This document shows, piece after piece, positions 2,524-59,699 of a DNA stretch of 64,000 bases (position 1 is the stretch's first letter; every line of letters begins with the position of its first letter). This stretch comes from Patescibacteria group bacterium (lineage in GTDB: Bacteria > Patescibacteriota > Patescibacteriia > UBA1558 > GWA2-36-10), in the NCBI GenBank assembly GCA_018819405.1, contig JAHJQF010000001.1, forward strand, positions 513,377-577,376. Direction: 5' to 3'. The position numbers and the translations under genes were made by a program. Below the pieces are notes generated by a model. The model worked only from the letters and a program-made list of their open reading frames with translations. It ran no database searches and was not told where the DNA came from.

Positions 2524-3072
2524 ATGAAACAAGAAAAAATAATTTTAGGATTTACTGGATTAATAGCTTGTGGCAAAGGTACAGCTGCTAAATATTTTGC
2601 AAGCAAATATAATGCTGATACTTTTCGTTTTTCTACTATGCTCAGAGATATATTAGATAGATTATATTTGCCTCAATCTAGGGAGAATTTTCAAATTATA
2701 TCTCCAGTATTAAGAGAGGCCTTTGGTCAAGACTTAATGGCTAAAGTAATATCGGAGGATGTTAAAAATTCTCAGGCTGAGATGATAGTTATAGATGGAA
2801 TGCGTCGTCCAGCTGATATAGAATATCTTAAAAAAATTTCTGGTTTTAAAATGATAGCTATAGAAGTAGATGCTAAGGTGCGTTATGAAAGATTAAGAGC
2901 CAGAGGAGAGAATTCTGATGATAAAGAAAAAACTTGGGAGCAATTTCAAGCAGAGCACAAAGCGGAAACAGAAATTTATATTCCAGATTTAATGAAACAA
3001 GCTGATATTACTATAAATAATAACGGAACTTTGGAAGAGTTATATAAACAACTTGATAAATTAGTTGATTAA
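2524..3072 (+). CDS. P-loop nucleotide kinase (dNMP-kinase / dephospho-CoA-kinase-like)
   Basis: Walker [10 protein letters not shown] at the N-terminus in a protein of about 180 aa. Flanked by dCMP deaminase and thyA. The exact substrate cannot be told from sequence. Confidence 0.4.
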
Positions 3073-3075
3073 TTT

Positions 3076-3149
3076 GTCATTGCGAGCCCGAAGGGCGTGG
3101 CAATCTAAATATTGTAGATTGCTTCGTCGCTAAATATTCTCGCAATGAC
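3076..3149. repeat. REP-like nested palindromic element, copy 1
   Basis: Outer 11-bp inverted repeat GTCATTGCGAG/CTCGCAATGAC encloses an inner GGCAATCTA/TAGATTGC palindrome. The copy at 4063-4136 is nearly identical. Confidence 0.7.
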
Positions 3150-3158
3150 GGTAAGAAA

Positions 3159-4055
3159 ATGAAACAATATTTACAACTACTTCAAAAAATAATGGATGAG
3201 GGCGTAGACAAAAGTGACCGTACTGGTGTAGGTACGCGTAGTGTTTTTGGTGCTCAGGCCAGATTTGATTTGTCCGAAGGCTTTCCATTACTCACTACCA
3301 AAAAAGTATTTTTAAAAGGAATAATTCATGAGCTTATCTGGTTTGTCAGGGGGGATACCAATATCAAATATTTGGTAGACAATGGTGTGCGTATTTGGAA
3401 TGAGTGGCCATACCAAAAATATCTGGAAGCCAATGGATTGGCAGATAAATATCCAAAATATACACCTGAGTGGGAAGAAAAAATGCAAGAGTTTGTAGAT
3501 AATGTAAAAAATGATGACGAGTTTGCCAAAAAGTGGGGTGATCTCGGTCCAGTTTATGGCAAACAGTGGCGTGATTTTGGCGGGGTAGACCAACTCAAGG
3601 ATGTGATTGAAAGATTAAAAACAAACCCCAATGACAGGCGTATGATAGTGTCTGCTTGGAATCCACCAGAAATCCCCAAGATGGCTTTGCCACCTTGTCA
3701 TTTGCTTTACCAATTTTATGTAGCTGACGGTAAATTGTCACTACAAATGTATCAAAGGAGCTGTGACACATTTTTGGGTGTGCCTTTTAATATTGCTTCT
3801 TATTCGTTGCTTTTGATGATGGTAGCTCAAGTAGTTGGTTTGAAACCCGGTGTATTCGTTCATGTCTATGGTGATTTGCATATTTATAGCAATCATTTTG
3901 ACCAGGTTAAAGAACAATTATCACGTGAGCCAAGACAACTTCCGATCATGAAAATAAATTCAGATGTCAAAAATATTGAAGATTTTAAATTTGAAGATTT
4001 TACATTAGAGGGCTATGATCCATATCCTATTATAAAAGCACCAATTGCAGTTTAA
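3159..4055 (+). CDS. thyA: thymidylate synthase
   Basis: The [11 protein letters not shown] motif, [11 protein letters not shown] with the catalytic Cys, and the DLHIY motif are canonical ThyA. Confidence 0.95.
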
Positions 4056-4062
4056 TTAATTG

Positions 4063-4136
4063 TCATCGCGAGCCCAAAGGGCGTGGCGATCTAAAATCTT
4101 TTAGATTGCTTCGTCACTAAGTTCCTCGCAATGACA
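4063..4136. repeat. REP-like nested palindromic element, copy 2
   Basis: GTCATCGCGAG...CTCGCAATGAC with the same inner palindrome as copy 1. The two copies flank thyA. Confidence 0.7.
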
Positions 4137-5037: not shown

Positions 5038-5134
5038 AAATTCACCAGATAACGTTATGGTGTTAAAGTATAATAAATCAGTGTTGATTTTACTAACAGG
5101 GAAAAAGTTATTTAATCATTAATTTCTAACGGGG
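5029..5134. repeat. palindromic intergenic element (TIR CCCCGTTAGAAATT / AATTTCTAACGGGG)
   Basis: 14-bp terminal inverted repeats around an AT-rich spacer that contains TATAAT. The left end supplies the stop of the 4633-5037 ORF. The right end abuts the GTG start of dut. Confidence 0.7.
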
Positions 5135-5556
5135 TGAAAATAAAAGCTAAAAAAATATATCCAGATGCCCAGATGCCCCAGACTATGAGGCCAGGCGACG
5201 CAGCGATGGATTTTTATAGTTATCGTGATTATGAAATCAAACCTGGCGAAAGGATAATAGTAGAAACTGGCATTGCTATTGCTATTCCAGACGGCTATTG
5301 GGGCAATGTCAGGGATCGTGGAGGTCTGCCAGCCAAACACGGCATTCACACTATGGGCGGAGTTTTTGATTCCAATTTTCGTGGTGAAGTGCAAATCATT
5401 ATGATTAATCTAGGGCAAGAAACTTACAAAATAGCTAAAGGTCACCGTATTTGTCAGATGATTATAGAGCGTCATGAAACAGTAGAACTAGAAGAAGTAG
5501 ATGAGCTTGATGAAACAAACAGGGGAGATAATATGCTGGCCTCAAGTGGTTATTAA
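5134..5556 (+). CDS. dut: dUTP diphosphatase
   Basis: GGVFDSNFRGEVQIIMINLG is a dUTPase motif. GTG start lies inside AACGGGGTG. Confidence 0.9.
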   Translation: MKIKAKKIYPDAQMPQTMRPGDAAMDFYSYRDYEIKPGERIIVETGIAIAIPDGYWGNVRDRGGLPAKHGIHTMGGVFDSNFRGEVQIIMINLGQETYKIAKGHRICQMIIERHETVELEEVDELDETNRGDNMLASSGY

Positions 5557-17047: not shown

Positions 17048-17054
17048 ATTTTTA

Positions 17055-17104
17055 CCCCGTTAAATGTTCGCCCCGCGAACACTGCAAAGCAGTATTTAAC
17101 GGGG
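17055..17104. repeat. CCCCGTTAAAT / ATTTAACGGGG palindrome with an inner GTTCGC/GCGAAC hairpin
   Basis: Lies between the thrS start and the leader terminator. Same TIR type as the elements at 22921, 35871 and 46736/47005. Confidence 0.6.
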
Positions 17105-17398
17105 TGAAAATTAAAATAACCCAAGACTAGTTAAGTCTTGGGACCCTGAGTGACTCCTAAGGAGTCAAACGGGCGGTTCCACCCAAGTTCCTCCTATAAA
17201 AGGAGGCAACTCATTTATTTTATTGAGATTTAGTCCCTGTTTTGAGGGATTCCATATGCTGGAAGAATAGTTGGTTGCTATTCCAATCATCTAAGGCGTT
17301 TATAATTATAGCTCATTTTAATATTTGTTGTAAACTATTGACAAAATAGTAAATACATGATATACTTAGATATTATTTTGAACTTTAAATTAGGTCAA
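17105..17398 (-). promoter_or_regulatory. putative T-box riboswitch leader of thrS (promoter, stem I, T-box, terminator)
   Basis: The minus strand reads GGAGGAACTTGGGTGGAACCGCCCG, matching the T-box core GGGUGGNACCGC. It is followed by the terminator CCCAAGACTTAACTAGTCTTGGG and a T-run. AACTTGGG of the T-box can pair with the 5' arm of the terminator as an antiterminator. A TTGACC-17-TAATAT promoter lies at 17370-17398 on the minus strand. A candidate ACC specifier sits in the loop CAACCAA. Confidence 0.5.
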
Positions 17399-17502
17399 AA
17401 AATATGGCCTTAGCAGTTAGTTTGGATATAAATCATCTGGTCTGACTGCTACGGCTATAATGTAACACGGACGTAGTAAAACTCTAGAATTGGAGGAAAA
17501 TC

Positions 17503-18003
17503 ATGAAGAAGCTCACCATCCTGTTCGCTTTGGTGTTGACTCTGCTTGCTTTGACCACGATCTTGGTCAACAGGCATGAGGGTGGTGTCTACCGACTGGA
17601 AGTTTCCGGGGACAGCATCAGTGATATGGTTCGTCGAGGCAATTATGATTGGACCAACTCCAACATCAATGATGACTACTTCACTGCTGATGCTCCGCAC
17701 GAAGCGAACATCATTATTTTCAAGCACTTCGGCGAGGACATGAGCACGAAGGCCGTGCTCAAAGCTCTGGATGACGACGGCTTACGTCCGGCAACTATGT
17801 CCGAGCTACTCGAGCTTGGCATTTGCTATCCCGAATTGCAGAAGCAGTTTCCTATCGTCGCCCTCGGTTCTATCTCTCAGGATCCGTATGGCGACCGCTC
17901 TGTCGGTTTCCTCTACTCCGTTGATGGTCAGCGCGAGCTCGGCCTGGACTGGATCGACGATGACTGGTACGACCACTTTCGTTTCGCCGCTGTCCGCAAG
18001 TAA
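17503..18003 (+). CDS. secreted hypothetical protein in a GC-rich island
   Basis: About 55% GC. Strong GGAGG ribosome-binding site 8 nt upstream. N-terminal signal peptide MKKLTILFALVLTLLALTT. No recognizable domain. Confidence 0.5.
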   Translation: MKKLTILFALVLTLLALTTILVNRHEGGVYRLEVSGDSISDMVRRGNYDWTNSNINDDYFTADAPHEANIIIFKHFGEDMSTKAVLKALDDDGLRPATMSELLELGICYPELQKQFPIVALGSISQDPYGDRSVGFLYSVDGQRELGLDWIDDDWYDHFRFAAVRK

Positions 18004-18106
18004 CTGGTTCTTGGCTACTTGTGTCCTCGGGACTTGATTGTCTCTTGCTTGTCCGCCGGAGCTCGCAAGAGCGTAGGCGGAAACACTTGGCCTCGGTCAG
18101 ATCGCA

Positions 18107-18153
18107 AAACTCCGTCTCAATATTCCCATCAGGGTGCGAGACGGAGTTTTTTA
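18107..18153 (+). terminator. rho-independent terminator
   Basis: aaaactccgtctc...gagacggagtttttt. Confidence 0.8.
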
Positions 18154-18171
18154 TTATCTAAAAATCCTCAA

Positions 18172-18206
18172 AACCCCCTCCTATTCGGCAGGGGGGGGGC
18201 TTTTGG
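18172..18206 (+). terminator. rho-independent terminator (second)
   Basis: ccccctcc tattcggca ggggggggg cttttgg. Confidence 0.6.
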
Positions 18207-18208
18207 TG

Positions 18209-18247
18209 AAAACCAACCTTCGAGGTTAACCTCGAAGGTTGGTTTTT
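18209..18247. terminator. bidirectional terminator
   Basis: Perfect palindrome aaaaccaaccttcgaggttaacctcgaaggttggttttt that overlaps the stop of the minus-strand gene at 18246. Confidence 0.8.
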
Positions 18248-19370
18248 ATTCGATTATTATATGATCTTTAAATCGGGGAGCAGATTTTACCCAAAATGGA
18301 GAAAAGTCTATATCAATTCTCTGTGCTTTAAAATCTTGGAAATATTGACGTAAGCCGTTTTCATCTAGACCAACCAAATCTTCTTTATTTATATTTAGAG
18401 CGTTTTGGCCATTATTTATTTCCGCTTCCAAACTTACTTCTATGACAGCTTCTTCTTTTTCAAAATTAATATCCAATATTTTATAATCAAATTTGTCAGG
18501 GTTGAATTTGATTAGTGTCTGACTACTAGCCAGTTCTTTTTGGAATTTTTCTTGGGCAAGCTCAAATAGTTTTTGTTGGTCAAAAATTAGGGCATGAGCC
18601 GTCACATTTTCAGTCACAGATGTTTCTTCGGATACATCTCCCAGCTCGCTGGACTCCACGACTTCAAATTCAAATATTATTTGTTTGGCGGATATTGATA
18701 GGTTTTCCGGTAAAATATTATTTATATTTTCTACAGCTTTTTTTTCGGCGCTAGTTTTTAATTCAGCTATTACTTTGTCAAGATTTTCTTGGCTGACACT
18801 ATAATGAGGAATTGAAGTTTGTTTCATTCCTTCTGTAGTCTCAGCATATATTTTGTCCTGTAAGCCCTCCCATAGTCCTGGTATGATAAAGGTAGTAGCC
18901 TCGGTTACGTATTCTGCACCTGTTTGATCGGCTTCGGCCCATACCTCTACTTGTCCGCCAGCTGGCACAGTCACACCTTCACTGATACGAAATAATTTAC
19001 CATCAGGTGTCAGTAGGCGAGTGGTTTTAATCAATGGTTGACTTTTAGAATAATTGTTGTAGATAGTGACATAGCCACCGGCTTTTTCACTGCTGCTCAT
19101 TTCTTGACTGCTTTTTATGTTGGCTGATATTTCAAATTCAGTGTTTATGATTTTACCCAATATAGCATCTGGTGATATTTCAGTAGTATCTTCAGATTGC
19201 ATTTCCACCAAAACAGAGCCAGTTTTGTTTTCCAGATTGTTATATATTTTTATTTTTACTTTAGCCAGAGCAAAGTGGACAATCATTAAAATAGCTACAA
19301 GAGTCAGAAAAAAGAAAAAAATAACTACTTTGGAATATATATTGCCTTTGGCTCTGGATGGATTTGTCAT
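18246..19370 (-). CDS. membrane-anchored hypothetical protein
   Basis: N-terminal TM helix followed by an acidic extracytoplasmic domain. Confidence 0.45.
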   Translation of the reverse strand: MTNPSRAKGNIYSKVVIFFFFLTLVAILMIVHFALAKVKIKIYNNLENKTGSVLVEMQSEDTTEISPDAILGKIINTEFEISANIKSSQEMSSSEKAGGYVTIYNNYSKSQPLIKTTRLLTPDGKLFRISEGVTVPAGGQVEVWAEADQTGAEYVTEATTFIIPGLWEGLQDKIYAETTEGMKQTSIPHYSVSQENLDKVIAELKTSAEKKAVENINNILPENLSISAKQIIFEFEVVESSELGDVSEETSVTENVTAHALIFDQQKLFELAQEKFQKELASSQTLIKFNPDKFDYKILDINFEKEEAVIEVSLEAEINNGQNALNINKEDLVGLDENGLRQYFQDFKAQRIDIDFSPFWVKSAPRFKDHIIIE

Positions 19371-22920: not shown

Positions 22921-22956
22921 TTTTTACCCCGTTAAGTCCCGCTTTTCGGGATTTAA
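22921..22956. repeat. CCCGTTAA...TTAACGGG palindrome upstream of dnaE
   Basis: ccccgttaagtcccgcttttcgggatttaacggg is a nested hairpin. The minus strand reads TAACGGGGTAAAAACAAATTATG into dnaE. Confidence 0.6.
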
Positions 22957-23127
22957 CGGGAGTAAATATTTAATGGGATGAATAATAAAACCCGATAACA
23001 CTCGTTAGGGAGATTAAAATTTATCGGGATGTTGATTTATAAAAAATAAATCAAATAATTTGTTTTTGTTTTTGTTTGCCCGAGCGATTTGTGGTGAGCG
23101 TAATTGAATTAAATCGAGGGGTTTTTA

Positions 23128-25565: not shown

Positions 25566-26246
25566 ATGGCAGAATTTGTACTAGAAGCAAAAGAACGTAA
25601 GACTGGCACTCAAGGTCAGTTGACAGAAATCCGTGATTCAAAAAGAGTCCCAGGAGTTATTTATGGCTTTTCTCAGGAGCCAATATCTATTGATTTGGCT
25701 TATTTGGAGCTACTAAAAGTGCTCAAAGAAGCTGGAACTAGCAATATTATTTCTATAAAAGTTGGAGATAAAACCATCAAAGTTATTGTCCGTGAATACC
25801 AACAGGATCCTGTCAAAGACACTTTGTCACATGTTGATTTTATGGCTATTGATGAGAAAAAAGAGCTTACTACCAAAGTGCCATTGGCCTTTGTAGGAAT
25901 CTCGACTGCTGTGCGTGAGCAAGGTGGTCAGGTAAATACCAAAAATATTTCAGTTAATGTGCGATGTTTGCCAGCTGATTTACCAGCTAAGATAGATGTG
26001 GATGTCAGTTTATTGAAAGAGCTTGGTCAGAAATTGATTATTTCAGATCTACAAGTAGATGATAAAGTAAATATTTTGAATAACCCAAATGATCCAGTAG
26101 TTGATGTTACTTTGCCGAAGAAAATTAAAATTGAAGAAGTGGCTACTCCTGTTGCTGGTGCTGAAGGCGAAACTAAAGAAGGTGAAGAAGGCGAAACTAA
26201 AGAAGGTGAAGAAGGCGAAACTAAAGAAGGTGAAGATAAAAAATAG
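25566..26246 (+). CDS. rplY: 50S ribosomal protein L25 / general stress protein Ctc
   Basis: N-terminal VLEAKERKTGTQGQLTEIRDSKRVPGVIYG. The C-terminal tail is encoded by a 3 x 24-bp tandem repeat (EGETKEGE x3). Confidence 0.8.
   Translation: MAEFVLEAKERKTGTQGQLTEIRDSKRVPGVIYGFSQEPISIDLAYLELLKVLKEAGTSNIISIKVGDKTIKVIVREYQQDPVKDTLSHVDFMAIDEKKELTTKVPLAFVGISTAVREQGGQVNTKNISVNVRCLPADLPAKIDVDVSLLKELGQKLIISDLQVDDKVNILNNPNDPVVDVTLPKKIKIEEVATPVAGAEGETKEGEEGETKEGEEGETKEGEDKK
26160..26237 (+). repeat. 24-bp tandem repeat x3 inside the rplY 3' end
   Basis: Three copies of gaaggcgaaactaaagaaggtgaa. Confidence 0.85.
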
Positions 26247-42381: not shown

Positions 42382-42453
42382 CCCCCGTTGGTCCAATTGG
42401 ACAGGACACCTGCCAGTCAGGTAATATAGGTTCAAATCCTATACGGGGTACCA
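42382..42453 (+). tRNA. degenerate tRNA-like element (T-arm + acceptor + CCA, abnormal D/anticodon arms)
   Basis: Good T-arm ATAGG-TTCAAAT-CCTAT and a 3' acceptor ACGGGGT-A-CCA. The D region is the perfect palindrome GTCCAATTGGAC and the anticodon arm folds with a 5-nt loop. Either a tRNA pseudogene or an unusual tRNA. Confidence 0.3.
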
Positions 42454-42692: not shown

Positions 42693-42789
42693 TTTAAAAA
42701 ATAAAATCATTGACAAAAACCCTTAAAATTACTATATTAAATTATACGACGGCGCATATTTGCTGACGGCTAAAATTTTTTTTATAAAT

Positions 42790-42861
42790 CCCGTTAGAAA
42801 TTCACGAGATTTTATCGGGAGATAGTAAATAAAAAATAATTTAACTATAATTTCTAACGGG
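42790..42861. repeat. palindromic element (TIR CCCGTTAGAAATT / AATTTCTAACGGG)
   Basis: Near-identical to the copy at 58361-58439, including the shared 31-mer taatttaactataatttctaacgggatgaat. The right end supplies the ATG of the gene at 42862. Confidence 0.75.
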
Positions 42862-44259
42862 ATGAATTTATCAACATTATTATTACTTTTGGTATATATA
42901 GTAAACGTAGGTCTTTTAGTATATGTTTTGTTTTCCAAAAATAAAAAAAAAGGCTGGCCGTTTTTTTGGATGTTGCTTTTGTTGATTTTATGGCAGAGTA
43001 CAGAATTATTTAGTATTATATATTTTGTTGACAAAGGAGAAACCCTTCTTCTTTTTGCTGTCAGAGCCGGGCTTTTGCCGACTCTTTATCTAGCGCCAGC
43101 TTTTTTGTGGCTGGTTTTTTCTTTGTTTGATAAATGGCAGACTTTCAAACCATGGCGCAAATTTTTGTATTTTCTACCGGCTATTATTATGTCGCCTTTT
43201 GCGTTTACAGATTTTAATACCAGTCAGGTAGTATTTGAGGATGAGAGGATATATTATGTTGGCGGGCCGATTTATTGGTTTTTTGCTGCCTACTTTATCA
43301 TATTGATGAGTTATGGCATGTATTTTTTGATCAAAAACAGAAAACAAGCCAAGGCTATAGTCAGGCGGCAAATAGATTATATTTTTATAGGGACTTTTTT
43401 GACAGCTGCTTGCGGATTGATATTTAACATATTATTGCCAATATTTGGTCTGAACAACTTATATTATCTGGGTGTAAATAGCACTATATTTTTTACAGCT
43501 ATTCTTACTTATGCACTTTTTAGGTATAGATTCTTTGATTTGTATATTTCTTTTTATCGTTTACTGATTGATTTTGTGCGTTTATTTTTTACAGGTTTGA
43601 TCTTTTATATTCTTTATATTTTGCTTTTTGATGTAGCAGATTTGGATTTTTCAGTGACTAGCAATGTCTTGTTGTTTTTGGTTATGATTGCTCTAGTTGG
43701 GCCATTTTTGTTTCGCTTGATAAATAAATTTTTTGTAGCTTATCTGGTCTATCCGGAAAATGACATCAAAAATTCAGAAAACAAAATTGCCGATATTTTG
43801 CGCTCCAGTCGTGATCTGGATGTTTTATTTTCACGTTTGGCTAGAGAGATAAGTAAAATAGTGGACTATCAGGACATTTATTTTTTTCTTTCCAAAAGAA
43901 AAAATGTCGATATGTTTTATCAGGTATTTCCGGTAGGCGAGAGACTGATGAGCAAGACAAATAGTGAGATGCTTTCTTATCTTGCTCGCAAACGAGAAGT
44001 TATAAATAAGGCAGAATTAGAATATATAGGCGCTGAGAAAAGCCTGCTGTCAGAATTGTCCGAAAAGCAAGTAGATCTGGTGTTGCCCATTTTTTATAAT
44101 CGTCAGCTTTTGGGAGCAATACTTATAAATAACAACAATGGTCTGGTATCTATCCAAAAAATACATTTTCTAAAACAGCTAAATAAATATCTAGACATTG
44201 CTATTGGTAGTCTGCTCTTGCATCAACAGGATATGGCGGAAAACAGTCCAAAAGTTTAA
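42862..44259 (+). CDS. 7TM membrane sensor protein (His-kinase-type 7TM N-domain + cytoplasmic domain)
   Basis: 465 aa. The N-terminal multi-TM region is similar to those of 44353, 45048 and the kinase at 51398. The C-terminal soluble domain may be GAF-like. Confidence 0.5.
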   Translation: MNLSTLLLLLVYIVNVGLLVYVLFSKNKKKGWPFFWMLLLLILWQSTELFSIIYFVDKGETLLLFAVRAGLLPTLYLAPAFLWLVFSLFDKWQTFKPWRKFLYFLPAIIMSPFAFTDFNTSQVVFEDERIYYVGGPIYWFFAAYFIILMSYGMYFLIKNRKQAKAIVRRQIDYIFIGTFLTAACGLIFNILLPIFGLNNLYYLGVNSTIFFTAILTYALFRYRFFDLYISFYRLLIDFVRLFFTGLIFYILYILLFDVADLDFSVTSNVLLFLVMIALVGPFLFRLINKFFVAYLVYPENDIKNSENKIADILRSSRDLDVLFSRLAREISKIVDYQDIYFFLSKRKNVDMFYQVFPVGERLMSKTNSEMLSYLARKREVINKAELEYIGAEKSLLSELSEKQVDLVLPIFYNRQLLGAILINNNNGLVSIQKIHFLKQLNKYLDIAIGSLLLHQQDMAENSPKV

Positions 44260-57550: not shown

Positions 57551-58368
57551 AAAAAAATAAAAAAATTTTAGTAGTCGGCTGCGGCAATATGGGACAAGCG
57601 ATAATCAGTCAGCTTTTGGATTGCAGATTTAGCTCCCGAAAATATTTAGCTGGTTTTGATAAAGCAAAAAATAGAGCAAAAGTAAGGGGGCTGTATGATA
57701 TAGATATGGTCGGTGATCTTAATAAAGCTATAGACAATGCTGACATTATTATTTTTTCTATAAAGCCACAACAGTTTAATGATATAGCAAAACAAATAAA
57801 AGGACGATTAAAACCAAATCAATTAGTAGTTTCTATTATGGCCGGTATTTCCTATAAACATATTAGTCAAAGTATAAAGCATAAAAAAGTAGTGCGAGCC
57901 ATGCCCAATTTGGCATTACAGGTCGGGCATAGTGTCACGGCTTGGTATACTCCTAGGGCATTTGTTAAAAGTGTCAAAAGTACTACCAATAGTCTATTGT
58001 CTGTTTTCGGGGCAGTTCTAGAAGTAAAAAAAGAAGATATGATAGACAAGGTGACAGCCATTAGTGGTTCCGGGCCAGCTTATTTCTTTTTTACAGCCGA
58101 GGCCTTAGAAAGTGTTGCTTTAGATTTTGGTTTCAACAAAAGACAGGCAGCTATGTTAGCCAAAGATACTTTCATTGGGGCAGCCAAGCTAGCACAGGTA
58201 GATAAGAGAGATAATAAAAAGTTGCGTCAAGCAGTCACTTCCAAAGGCGGCACTACCGAAGCAGCTATTAGAGAAATAAGTACAGATTTTTTATCTATGT
58301 GGCGTCGAGCTCTAAAAGCAGCTCATCAAAGGGCAAAAGTAATTTCCAAGAAATATGAATCCCGTTAG
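57547..58368 (+). CDS. proC: pyrroline-5-carboxylate reductase
   Basis: ILVVGCGNMGQAI Rossmann motif. P5CR length. The stop is supplied by the palindromic element. Confidence 0.8.
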   Translation: MKKNKKILVVGCGNMGQAIISQLLDCRFSSRKYLAGFDKAKNRAKVRGLYDIDMVGDLNKAIDNADIIIFSIKPQQFNDIAKQIKGRLKPNQLVVSIMAGISYKHISQSIKHKKVVRAMPNLALQVGHSVTAWYTPRAFVKSVKSTTNSLLSVFGAVLEVKKEDMIDKVTAISGSGPAYFFFTAEALESVALDFGFNKRQAAMLAKDTFIGAAKLAQVDKRDNKKLRQAVTSKGGTTEAAIREISTDFLSMWRRALKAAHQRAKVISKKYESR

Positions 58369-58439
58369 AAATTCACAAAATTCTGACAGGATATAATAGT
58401 AAATAATTAATATATAATTTAACTATAATTTCTAACGGG
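58361..58439. repeat. palindromic element (TIR CCCGTTAGAAATT / AATTTCTAACGGG)
   Basis: The left end gives the proC stop and the right end gives the proA ATG. Near-identical to 42790-42861. Confidence 0.75.
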
Positions 58440-59699
58440 ATGAATAAAGATATTATCATTATTGGAAAGAGAGCTAAGGATGCTTCTCGGGAATTTGCTA
58501 CTGCAAGTAGTCAGCAAAAAAATGCGTTGCTGACTACTCTGGCATCTATGATAGCCTTTTATAAAAAGCAAATTCTTGATGCCAACAAAAAAGATCTATC
58601 AAATTATGTTAAAGATCATCCATTTTTTGATCGTCTAATGCTCAATGATTAGCGTCTGGATGAAATTAGACGTAGTTTGTTGGCTGTAGCCAAATTGCCT
58701 GATCCAATAGGAGAAATATCAGATGAAAAACGTCGTCCTAGCGGTATAGTAGTGTCCCGTATGAGAGTGCCTTTGGGTGTATTGGGAGTTATTTATGAAG
58801 CTAGACCAAATGTGACTATAGAGATTTCTAGTTTGGGGCTCAAATCGGGTAATGCTATTGTACTCAAGGGTGGTAAAGAAGCTATAAATAGTAATCAGAT
58901 TTTGGTAAAGATTATCCAAAAAGCCTTGGTCAAAAATGGATTTTCTAAATATACTGTTCAGCTTATCGGCACAAATCAGCGTAGTTTGGTGGCTGATATG
59001 ATAAGGATGAATAAATATATAGATGTTATAGTCCCTCGTGGAGGCAGGAGACTGATTGATTTTGTCAGAGACAATGCCTCGGTGCCTGTGATTGAGACCG
59101 GAGCAGGAGTTTGCCATACTTATGTAGAAAAAAGTGCTGATTTGAAAAAAGCCGTAAGGATTGTGGTGAATGCCAAGACCCAGCGGCCAAGTGTCTGTAA
59201 TGCTTTGGATACTTTGGTACTAGACAGTCAGATTGCCAAAAAGTTTTTGGCGTTATTGTCAGAGGAGCTGTCAAAGCACAGTGTGTTACTGCGCGCCGAT
59301 TCGGTCAGCTATTATATATTAAAAAAATATTATCCCAACAGTTTATTAAAAAAAGCTAAATTGTCAGATTTTAGCAAAGAATTTTTGGGTTTGGAGATGT
59401 CTATCAAAACAGTCAATAATGCTAAACAAGCTATGGATTTTATACAAGAGTATAGTTCGGGACATTCAGAAGCAATTTTGACCAAAAATGCCAAACTGGG
59501 ACAAATTTTTTTGAGGACAATTGATGCCGCAGCAGTCTATGTTAATACTTCCACTCGTTTTACAGATGGTTTTGAATTTGGTCTGGGTGCTGAAGTAGGT
59601 ATTTCTACTCAAAAATTGCACGCCAGAGGTCCTATGGGTCTCAAGGCGCTTACTAGTATGAAGTGGATTGTAAATAGTGATTGGAAGGGCAGGAAATAA
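58440..59699 (+). pseudogene. proA: gamma-glutamyl phosphate reductase interrupted by one in-frame TAG (codon 71)
   Basis: ORFs 58440-58652 and 58677-59699 are in the same frame and together span full-length ProA. They are separated only by TAG at 58650-58652. There are no other lesions. Confidence 0.5.

Follow-up and report, generated by a model that had tools for sequence, protein, structure and literature searches.

What is a GC-rich gene of no recognized family doing in the middle of a row of housekeeping genes in an AT-rich bacterial genome? The question is raised by a 64,000-nt stretch of DNA (hereafter the window) from a Patescibacteria group bacterium (assembly GCA_018819405.1, contig JAHJQF010000001.1, positions 513,377 to 577,376 of the forward strand), in which an initial annotation, made from the sequence alone, had picked out one open reading frame (ORF) and the hairpins behind it as acquired cargo, either a secreted effector or an adhesin-like protein. 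The 166-aa ORF is present on the plus strand as proposed, with an ATG start (17503–18003), and is annotated at NCBI as hypothetical (KKH39_02740). Homology identifies its product as a predicted variable protein of the diversity-generating retroelements (DGRs) of the Patescibacteria, or candidate phyla radiation (CPR), clade. The island as a whole is very probably a stand-alone target-gene cassette of a CPR-type DGR. Genes of this kind are known; what is unusual is that this one stands by itself, with an export or anchor signal and without a reverse transcriptase (RT). The case for family membership is built on homology, on the footprint left in the variable repeat (VR), and on the boundary element.

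The window protein is 100% identical to P0001 and belongs with 51 clustered homologs, all from Patescibacteria and all annotated as hypothetical; a further 259 relatives were found in JGI metagenomes, and searches of the ORF against Pfam, NCBIfam, and PHROG gave no family match. It is 61% identical to both P0010 (locus L001) and P0007 (L010), which adjoin bAvd and RVT_1 genes and have paired template repeats (TRs) and VRs. In L001, from Ca. Nomurabacteria, the 3′ end of the homolog recurs downstream as a 134-nt direct repeat, beyond which lie an opposite-strand bAvd gene and an RVT_1 reverse transcriptase; L010 has two homologs in tandem and then a single repeat of this kind, bAvd, and RT. Mismatches between the repeats fall almost exclusively at adenines of the downstream copy (22/23, 17/18, and 19/20 in the L001 and L010 pairs). 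Adenine-specific mismatches in an avd/RT context are the signature of a DGR, and the downstream copy is therefore the TR and the 3′ end of the gene the VR. The order target(+)/TR(+)/avd(−)/RT(+) recurs in a tblastn survey of 90 loci, and the same architecture is present in about 24–31 of 80 metagenome loci. No relatives were found in IMG/VR or among INPHARED phages. The domain had been called unrecognized; its homologs, however, adjoin TR, avd, and RT, and the two motifs singled out at that stage lie inside the VR (DWYDHFRF) and at its 5′ edge (QFPIVALGS..., QFPIVALGSISQDPYGD).

Two further observations concern the RT-linked elements. In most of them (for example L001 7110–7463 and L010 9158–9562), avd lies on the opposite strand between TR and RT, and a TR transcript reaching the RT gene would therefore be antisense to avd. 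Between the target terminator and the TR, RT-linked loci also carry a conserved element, (T)GGATAGTA(A/G)(A/G)CGA..C.G...GCGG(C/T)(C/T)A(C/A)GGCTT..GGCGG.CGAATTC, about 100–170 nt 3′ of the target stop (L001 6735–6800; also L029, L050, L054, L058, L072, and others). This element, presumably the TR RNA's 5′ leader, has no Rfam match and is not found in the window.

In the window copy, the VR comprises 134–137 nt (17865–18001, plus strand), delimited by in-register alignment with the VR/TR pairs of L001 and L010, and ends ...GTCCGCAAGT. The TRs of those two loci encode SVWQN.NGNRNVGYLN.ND..RKLNLNWIDNDW.D.CRFAAVRQ, their variable sites being occupied by AAC or AAT. The window VR encodes SISQDPYGDRSVGFLYSVDGQRELGLDWIDDDWYDHFRFAAVRK and, compared codon by codon, has NNY at every AAY codon of these TRs. 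It differs from them at 50–54% of TR adenine positions and at 19–21% of positions elsewhere, while the L001 and L010 TRs differ from each other at 11% of TR adenine positions and 15% elsewhere; given this pattern against foreign TRs, the window's own template would be of another lineage. Third-position A is absent from all 44–45 codons of the window VR, compared with a fraction of 0.10 in the rest of the ORF and 0.31–0.40 in host genes. The same complete absence characterizes 28 of 31 DGR-linked VRs and 8 of 19 RT-less copies. At the 3′ boundary of VR/TR homology, the window VR keeps ...CGCAAGT, whereas the TRs read ...CGCCAGT. In its codons, the window VR shows the footprint that adenine mutagenesis of an AAY-rich template leaves behind.

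How the gene came to stand where it does is clarified by L092, the closest of the relatives found (76% identity in the 374-aa protein), whose genes follow the same order: FtsW ... DnaE, the 374-aa gene, threonyl-tRNA synthetase (ThrRS), and inosine monophosphate dehydrogenase (IMPDH). The distance from the stop of the 374-aa gene to the start of ThrRS is 226 nt in L092 and 1198 nt in the window. By alignment, the extra DNA covers ~17335–18245 (~910 nt), from the −35 box of the cassette through its last hairpin (T3), and homology to L092 resumes at ~17295–17335. The cassette is inserted between the 374-aa gene and ThrRS, antisense to the row of housekeeping genes, and ThrRS retains its own promoter (17334 to 17305, minus strand); the earlier suggestion of an acquired segment holds in the sense of an insertion relative to L092. 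No other target locus adjoins ThrRS or the 374-aa gene, giving no sign of a shared insertion site. A second, separately assembled Logan contig (L008, SRR6514730) repeats the arrangement of IMPDH, ThrRS, and the same ORF, and mis-assembly is therefore unlikely; the run behind L008 may be the one behind the genome contig. L008 terminates within the T3 palindrome. Hypervariability of the VR was considered as the cause of this break and rejected, the contig stopping inside the palindrome and outside the VR. An RNA-mediated retro-copy of a target mRNA was likewise rejected as the origin of the insertion, which holds an untranscribed promoter as well as the non-conserved hairpins T2 and T3. Elsewhere, tRNA genes occur a few hundred to a few thousand bases from cassettes or DGRs (L004 6881–6952, L010 4748–5682, and L022 1369–1540, all on the minus strand), and such surroundings may be preferred insertion neighborhoods.

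Acquisition had also been argued from a supposedly foreign base composition. The ORF is GC-rich, at 0.527 (third-position GC, GC3, 0.665), rather than the claimed value of about 55%; 300-nt windows peak at 0.55–0.56, the whole window has a GC content of 0.362, and the flanking ThrRS and 374-aa genes 0.35–0.37 (GC3 0.28–0.31). Across the family, however, 76 non-redundant target genes average a GC content of 0.555 and a GC3 of 0.68 against a GC content of 0.43 for the rest of their loci, and the RT genes of the same elements have values of 0.37 and 0.39. GC3 is higher in the target than in the RT at 20 of 21 paired loci, with a mean excess of 0.34. Targets are GC-rich in every host and the linked RT and avd AT-rich, and GC is therefore no sign of a foreign donor genome: GC-richness is a trait of the family's target genes and not simply foreign composition. 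Family-wide, A occupies a fraction of 0.01 of third positions in VRs, compared with 0.14 in the scaffold, 0.16 in N-terminal modules, and 0.26 in RTs. Within the VR, adenine is scarce because the DGR mechanism excludes it. Within single DGRs (L001 6001–8494, L010 7026–10555, and the 21 paired loci generally), the target and TR are GC-rich and adenine-poor (GC3 ~0.68, third-position A 0.12), and RT and avd are AT-rich (GC3 ~0.39). This bias covers the entire target gene beyond the VR, including the signal-anchor codons of the window copy, in which 0 of 28 have third-position A.

An ordinary secreted effector or adhesin, horizontally acquired without any link to a retroelement, its GC content inherited from a donor and its hairpins merely insulating, would account for the insertion relative to L092, the hydrophobic N-terminus, and the lack of Pfam, NCBIfam, or PHROG matches. 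It is nonetheless highly improbable in view of homologs that are demonstrable DGR targets, a C-terminal 134 nt that matches VR/TR pairs codon-wise, the contrast between GC-rich targets and AT-rich RT/avd across hosts (including the GC3 excess at 20 of 21 loci), and the conservation, within the cassette, of the first terminator (T1) and the array preceding it, both of which are described below.

The initial annotation's "classic signal peptide" stands in part. The N-terminus, MKKLTILFALVLTLLALTTILVNRH, is strongly hydrophobic (Kyte–Doolittle 15-residue maximum 2.69), with an MKK n-region and a 19-residue h-region, and AlphaFold2 predicts a helix at residues 3–24; a clear cleavage site is missing, there being no AXA or lipobox before NRHEGG. 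For lack of these, the putative signal-anchor or signal peptide at residues 1–28 (17503–17586, plus strand; delimited by protein alignment, hydrophobicity, and the predicted helix) would fit better as an uncleaved signal-anchor than as a cleaved signal peptide. It stands in place of a helical N-terminal module of ~55 aa found in most homologs. Export-type N-termini occur in 5 of 76 non-redundant members (the window copy, L009, L044, L051, and L090), with a lipobox, FALGC, in L009/P0016. The four exported-type members with adequate flanks are all RT-less and all keep the boundary sequence; three have 4–5 units of the array that follows the stop codon, and L009 has two.

A model of the protein predicted from the 51-sequence alignment with AlphaFold2 has a pLDDT of 90.3 and a pTM of 0.81. 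Its top 15 Foldseek matches in the PDB are all C-type lectin domains (BDCA2, Mincle, NKR-P1A, rhodocetin, and others), and the best viral match is also a C-type lectin; the predicted fold is consistent with the C-type-lectin-like fold usual for DGR variable proteins. A sequence search of the PDB with the family profile yielded only spurious designed helical repeats, on the N-terminal module of the homologs, and no true PDB chain. Given an N-terminal export or anchor sequence and a predicted ligand-binding fold, "adhesin-like" is therefore a fair guess at function. In the arrangement that we envisage, the protein would be inserted into or exported across the membrane by its N-terminal hydrophobic segment, and its formerly or currently diversified residues would form a displayed binding surface of the C-type-lectin type.

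The coding region is framed by non-coding parts, several of which recur throughout the family. At the left edge of the ~910-nt insertion lies a predicted promoter (TTGACA-17-TATACT with a TG extension, 17338–17366, plus strand; 11 of 12 consensus matches), and many target genes of the family have a promoter of the TTGACA-N17-TATAAT type at the equivalent position. It is followed by a conserved long hairpin in the 5′ untranslated region (17402–17462, plus strand), recovered with RNAalifold and a covariance model. In 18 hand-picked family members, RNAalifold assigns the hairpin 23 pairs, 20 of which show compensatory double changes. The corresponding covariance model (R1) has a single match in the window (51.8 bits, E 2e-10) and matches upstream of target genes in about 25 loci (L001 5855–5916, L004 5862–5922, L063 1137–1196, and ~20 others), the sense strand outscoring the antisense everywhere except in L019, where they tie, and L051, where the order is reversed. 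It matches no Rfam family. A Shine–Dalgarno GGAGG is seen directly in the sequence at 17492–17496 (plus strand), as the initial annotation had it, but 6 nt rather than 8 nt from the ATG.

Directly 3′ of the stop codon, flanking the VR, is an array of five degenerate 8-nt units ending CTTGG, CTTGT, or CTCGG (18004–18105, plus strand). Family arrays consist of 4–8 degenerate octamers ending CTTGG, CTTGA, or CCTGG in the same position (L001 6589–6650; L013, L021, L025, L054, L067, L073, and others). The 75 non-redundant 70-nt flanks contain 101 copies of CTTGG, compared with 7.2 in shuffles (z = 35), and the spacing of these copies has a sharp 8-nt peak with harmonics. In 20 loci compared for both repeats, a 70-nt stretch contains on average 4.0 of the motifs when it follows a VR and 0.4 when it follows a TR. 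In the first 75 nt 3′ of the stop, CTTGG-type motifs number 4.2 in DGR-linked copies and 0.9 in shuffled controls; in RT-less copies they number 3.9 where the ...CGCAAGTAR end is intact and 2.6 where it is altered. The array is also present in the CPR DGRs L094–L096 (L094 1–110, L095 4138–4200, L096 4027–4075). For the targets of L095 and L096, the relationship is distant or absent; the L094 target runs off the contig end and was left out of this comparison. A short inverted repeat 15–30 nt 3′ of the stop is found in 48% of flanks against 20% of shuffles, and is thus not universal; in the window it is weakened to GGGAC/GTCTC (18029–18044). The window array is further interrupted by a GC-rich hairpin, overlooked initially, of the form TCCGCC...GCTC-GCAA-GAGC...GGCGGA (18052–18081, plus strand; −19.1 kcal/mol as RNA, −10.3 as DNA), which is missing from L001, L004, and VR2 of L010; L010 VR1 and L022 have similar TCCGCC-NNNN-GGCGGA hairpins in their arrays.

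Beyond the array are the three hairpin-plus-T structures that first drew attention to the island, all within 250 nt of the ORF. T1 (18106–18152, plus strand; stem CTCCGTCTC/GAGACGGAG, six T, −22.7 kcal/mol) is a predicted intrinsic terminator of the cassette itself, its stem identical after the array in L001 and both L010 targets and present as a compensated variant in L004; most family members have a terminator at this position. T2 (18174–18204, plus strand; CCCCCTCC, −21.9 kcal/mol) is a local GC hairpin with only four T, not conserved in other cassettes and absent from L092. Stems of C9/G9 had been described in two hairpins, but G9 occurs only in T2, where its partner is C5TC2, and there is no C9 run. 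T3 (18209–18247, both strands; −31.7 kcal/mol), also absent from L092, is a perfect palindrome with A4 and T5 flanks at the right-hand limit of the insertion. It overlaps the stop codon (18246–18248) of the convergent 374-aa gene (18246–19370), so that both the palindrome and its sharing were correctly noted; the stem is 17 bp rather than 15 bp long. T1 and T3 have the form of predicted rho-independent terminators, a stable GC-containing hairpin with a T run directly behind it, whereas T2 has only its four T, and six terminator-like sites occur in 1.7 kb against 1.5 ± 1.4 in shuffles. Insulation, as originally proposed, is plausible, given that the cassette is oriented against two housekeeping genes that share one direction, but T1 is a conserved part of the cassette and not an extra, local insulator. 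T1, T2, and the bidirectional T3 would keep the cassette transcript from continuing, in antisense, through the 374-aa and DnaE genes, and the transcript of the 374-aa gene would also end at T3.

Conserved hairpins on both sides of a GC-rich island might suggest a structured non-coding RNA, as such islands in AT-rich genomes often are, or else a pseudogene, with the ORF fortuitous in either case. This is hardly credible for an intact ORF conserved at the protein level (51 clustered and 259 metagenome relatives), with a coherent, high-confidence predicted fold and a strong third-position bias that marks coding constraint. Nor does Rfam speak for it: a search of the window and 14 related loci against Rfam 15 returned only tRNAs and one tmRNA at gathering score, leaving the hairpins, the array, and the TR leader unmatched.

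The CTTGG array may be a target-recognition element of CPR-type DGRs, a counterpart of the hairpin that flanks the initiation of mutagenic homing (IMH) site of the phage BPP-1, an idea that we advance tentatively and by analogy. It derives from the position of the array directly after the VR, its absence after the TR, its occurrence behind unrelated targets, and its tendency to be lost in orphans with decayed boundaries. The array might be read on single-stranded DNA or RNA by a multimeric factor such as the Avd pentamer. A full-text search of the DGR literature for CTTGG found no relevant paper.

If the island is a DGR target, where is its DGR? No RT, Avd, or second target was found in the window, and tblastn with the L001 and L010 RT and Avd sequences gave nothing at E < 0.4; the span free of DGR machinery thus extends 17 kb upstream and 46 kb downstream of the cassette. 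An RT profile search found none on the source contig among the 120 matches listed of at least 8000, an uninformative result. When the adenine-free end of the VR was used as an exact 22-mer, the genome contigs gave one match, in the high-GC Hyphomicrobiales locus L007, which was discarded as chance, and the metagenome contigs gave none; neither contig collection includes the source genome.

Several points weigh against the interpretation offered here. No second copy of any part of 17780–18260 occurs elsewhere in the window; with no cognate TR found there, the defining TR/VR pair is therefore missing for the window copy. The TR and RT searches covered the 64-kb window of a 1.04-Mb genome. The Foldseek scores behind the predicted fold are weak (probability 0.66–0.94, E 0.05–0.4, TM 0.42–0.48 by target length), and no solved DGR variable protein is among the PDB matches. 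Against the view that the copy has been orphaned, in particular, stand a fresh-looking VR with no third-position A (31–40% in host genes), an intact boundary, and five array units.

We nevertheless lean towards an orphaned, transposed copy whose VR is now fixed. RT-less loci are common: ~20 others with at least 2.5 kb of flank lack both RT and avd. Some hold RT-like fragments directly after the target (L045 4585–4755, L069 2094–2288, L082 4647–4874, L088 4295–4522), with the look of a decayed DGR, or an IS200-like transposase. The latter is illustrated by two near-identical target loci that diverge beyond the TR leader, L052 (1907–2972) with TR, avd, and RT and L050 (3278–3976) with an IS200-like (Y1) transposase and housekeeping genes, a pair that exemplifies a DGR lost and a target retained. 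Also counted towards an orphan are the 30-nt hairpin interrupting the window array, the weakened inverted repeat, and the single form in which the protein is known; the three public contigs agree exactly in its sequence, and clustering at 90% leaves it on its own.

A less probable, though still substantial, possibility is that the cassette is an active remote target. Its VR would still be rewritten with adenine-mutagenized cDNA from a DGR farther off in the genome, at a distance of over 17 kb upstream or over 46 kb downstream, and the cell would go on varying a binding protein that it exposes at its membrane. The absence of third-position A (0/44) matches 28 of 31 DGR-linked VRs and only 8 of 19 orphans, the ...GTCCGCAAGTAA boundary is intact with five CTTGG-type units left, and the exported-type members with adequate flanks, although all RT-less, have kept the boundary and, in three of four, 4–5 units. 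Cellular DGR targets more than 100 kb from their RT are documented (PMC5758913) and would be invisible to metagenome surveys (PMC8144416). Set against this, the 64-kb search showed no TR or RT, the databases searched contain no VR variants of the window protein, the motif GSVWQ reads GSISQ, with its structural Trp replaced, and a hairpin breaks up the array. The literature also records CPR DGRs as lacking remote targets (PMC5758913), in a survey limited, as is the present one, by short contigs (PMC8144416). The orphaned copy remains the reading that we favor.

Comparison with described systems places the cassette more precisely. Target proteins of Patescibacteria/CPR-clade DGRs were reportedly the subject of work by Paul et al. 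in 2017. The window copy shares with such targets its phylum, homologs beside a CPR-type RT and bAvd with adenine-specific TR/VR pairs, a small size, a C-terminal VR, the lack of a recognizable Pfam domain, and a cellular rather than phage-borne setting. It differs from them in lacking TR, avd, and RT within 64 kb and in forming a discrete insertion in a row of housekeeping genes. The LdtA protein of Legionella pneumophila, according to Arambula et al. in 2013, is said to be a DGR-diversified surface lipoprotein with a Tat/lipobox signal, adjoining its DGR. The window protein resembles it, by prediction, as a cellular target that combines an export signal at the N-terminus with a C-type-lectin VR at the C-terminus; unlike LdtA, it has a 19-residue hydrophobic segment without a lipobox or clear AXA site, and no adjacent DGR. 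Minimal C-type-lectin variable proteins of archaeal and nanoarchaeal DGRs were reportedly described by Handa et al. in 2016, and these too are very small scaffolds of C-type-lectin type that accommodate a VR; the window protein, in contrast, has no sequence similarity in the PDB, and its top Foldseek matches are animal C-type lectins.

The variable proteins of CPR-clade DGRs correspond to the "CPR set" of Wu et al. (PMC5758913) and to DGR clade 2 of Roux et al. (PMC8144416). Typical CPR targets lack transmembrane or signal sequences, unlike the window protein with its N-terminal hydrophobic signal or anchor, and whether they are truly non-membrane was left open by Roux et al. (PMC8144416). Terminators follow most loci of the present family, whereas Wu et al. 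found them after a minority of DGR targets (PMC5758913). In BPP-1, the target site consists of the IMH and a GC-rich hairpin/cruciform downstream of the VR (Guo et al., 2011, PMC3240598). The CPR cassettes are similar in having a recipient-specific sequence directly after the VR that is absent after the TR, in VR/TR homology that ends at a one-base difference (CGCAAGT vs. CGCCAGT, as in IMH vs. IMH*), and in short inverted repeats common 15–30 nt after the stop. They differ in carrying, as their dominant feature, 4–8 CTTGG-type octamers rather than a single 24-bp element, and only some of them have the inverted repeat. That one DGR can serve genes far from its RT is known from TvpA and non-adjacent targets in Treponema denticola (PMC5758913); those remote targets have a matching TR shown in the same genome, whereas for the window copy only 64 kb were examined.

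Other features of the window are recorded here as separate observations. Upstream of ThrRS, a T-box-like leader (TGGGTGGAACCGCCC; 17136–17299, minus strand), conserved in L092, scores 29.7 bits against an Rfam threshold of 93 and has a terminator-like hairpin at 17142–17120 (minus strand); it may be a divergent or minimal T-box in Patescibacteria. Intergenic palindromic or repeated elements with CCCGTTA...TAACGGG occur at 17053–17105 (minus strand), 22928–22960, 42783–42867, 58354–58445, and 5098–5139. One of them constitutes an extra insertion of ~50 nt in the ThrRS leader relative to L092, and together they may form a family of miniature repeat elements. Between tRNA-Ala and tRNA-Ser, Rfam calls a third tRNA (42382–42450, plus strand, 45.6 bits) that is missing from the ARAGORN output. 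A 47-nt hairpin-containing repeat (TTGTCATTGCGAGCCCGAAGGGCGTGGCAATC) lies 3′ of each of two neighboring genes (3063–3109 and 4049–4095), and L004 has a similar GTCATTCCCGCGAAAGCGGGAATC 3′ of its target cassette. Finally, three 24-nt tandem copies (GGTGAAGAAGGCGAAACTAAAGAA; 26157–26236) within the ORF at 25566–26246 encode an in-frame Gly/Glu/Lys-rich repeat.

The identification of the cassette makes an anonymous "hypothetical protein" island interpretable as a DGR variable-protein cassette, and it carries a caution for the reading of Patescibacteria genomes at large, in that GC-rich, adenine-poor islands in an AT-rich background can flag DGR targets instead of foreign DNA. The window copy and its four relatives, with their predicted signal-peptide-like or lipobox N-termini, suggest that some versions of the CPR target scaffold reach the cell surface. 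Three conserved non-coding parts of these elements, namely the 5′ hairpin, the VR-specific octamer array, and the TR leader, were not found in Rfam or in the literature searched, and they give handles on how the retroelement recognizes its target. If the array is indeed a recognition element, then stand-alone cassettes that retain the array, the boundary, and adenine-free third positions would be portable receivers, diversifiable in trans by any resident CPR DGR with a matching TR, and their exported versions would supply Patescibacteria with variable surface receptors.

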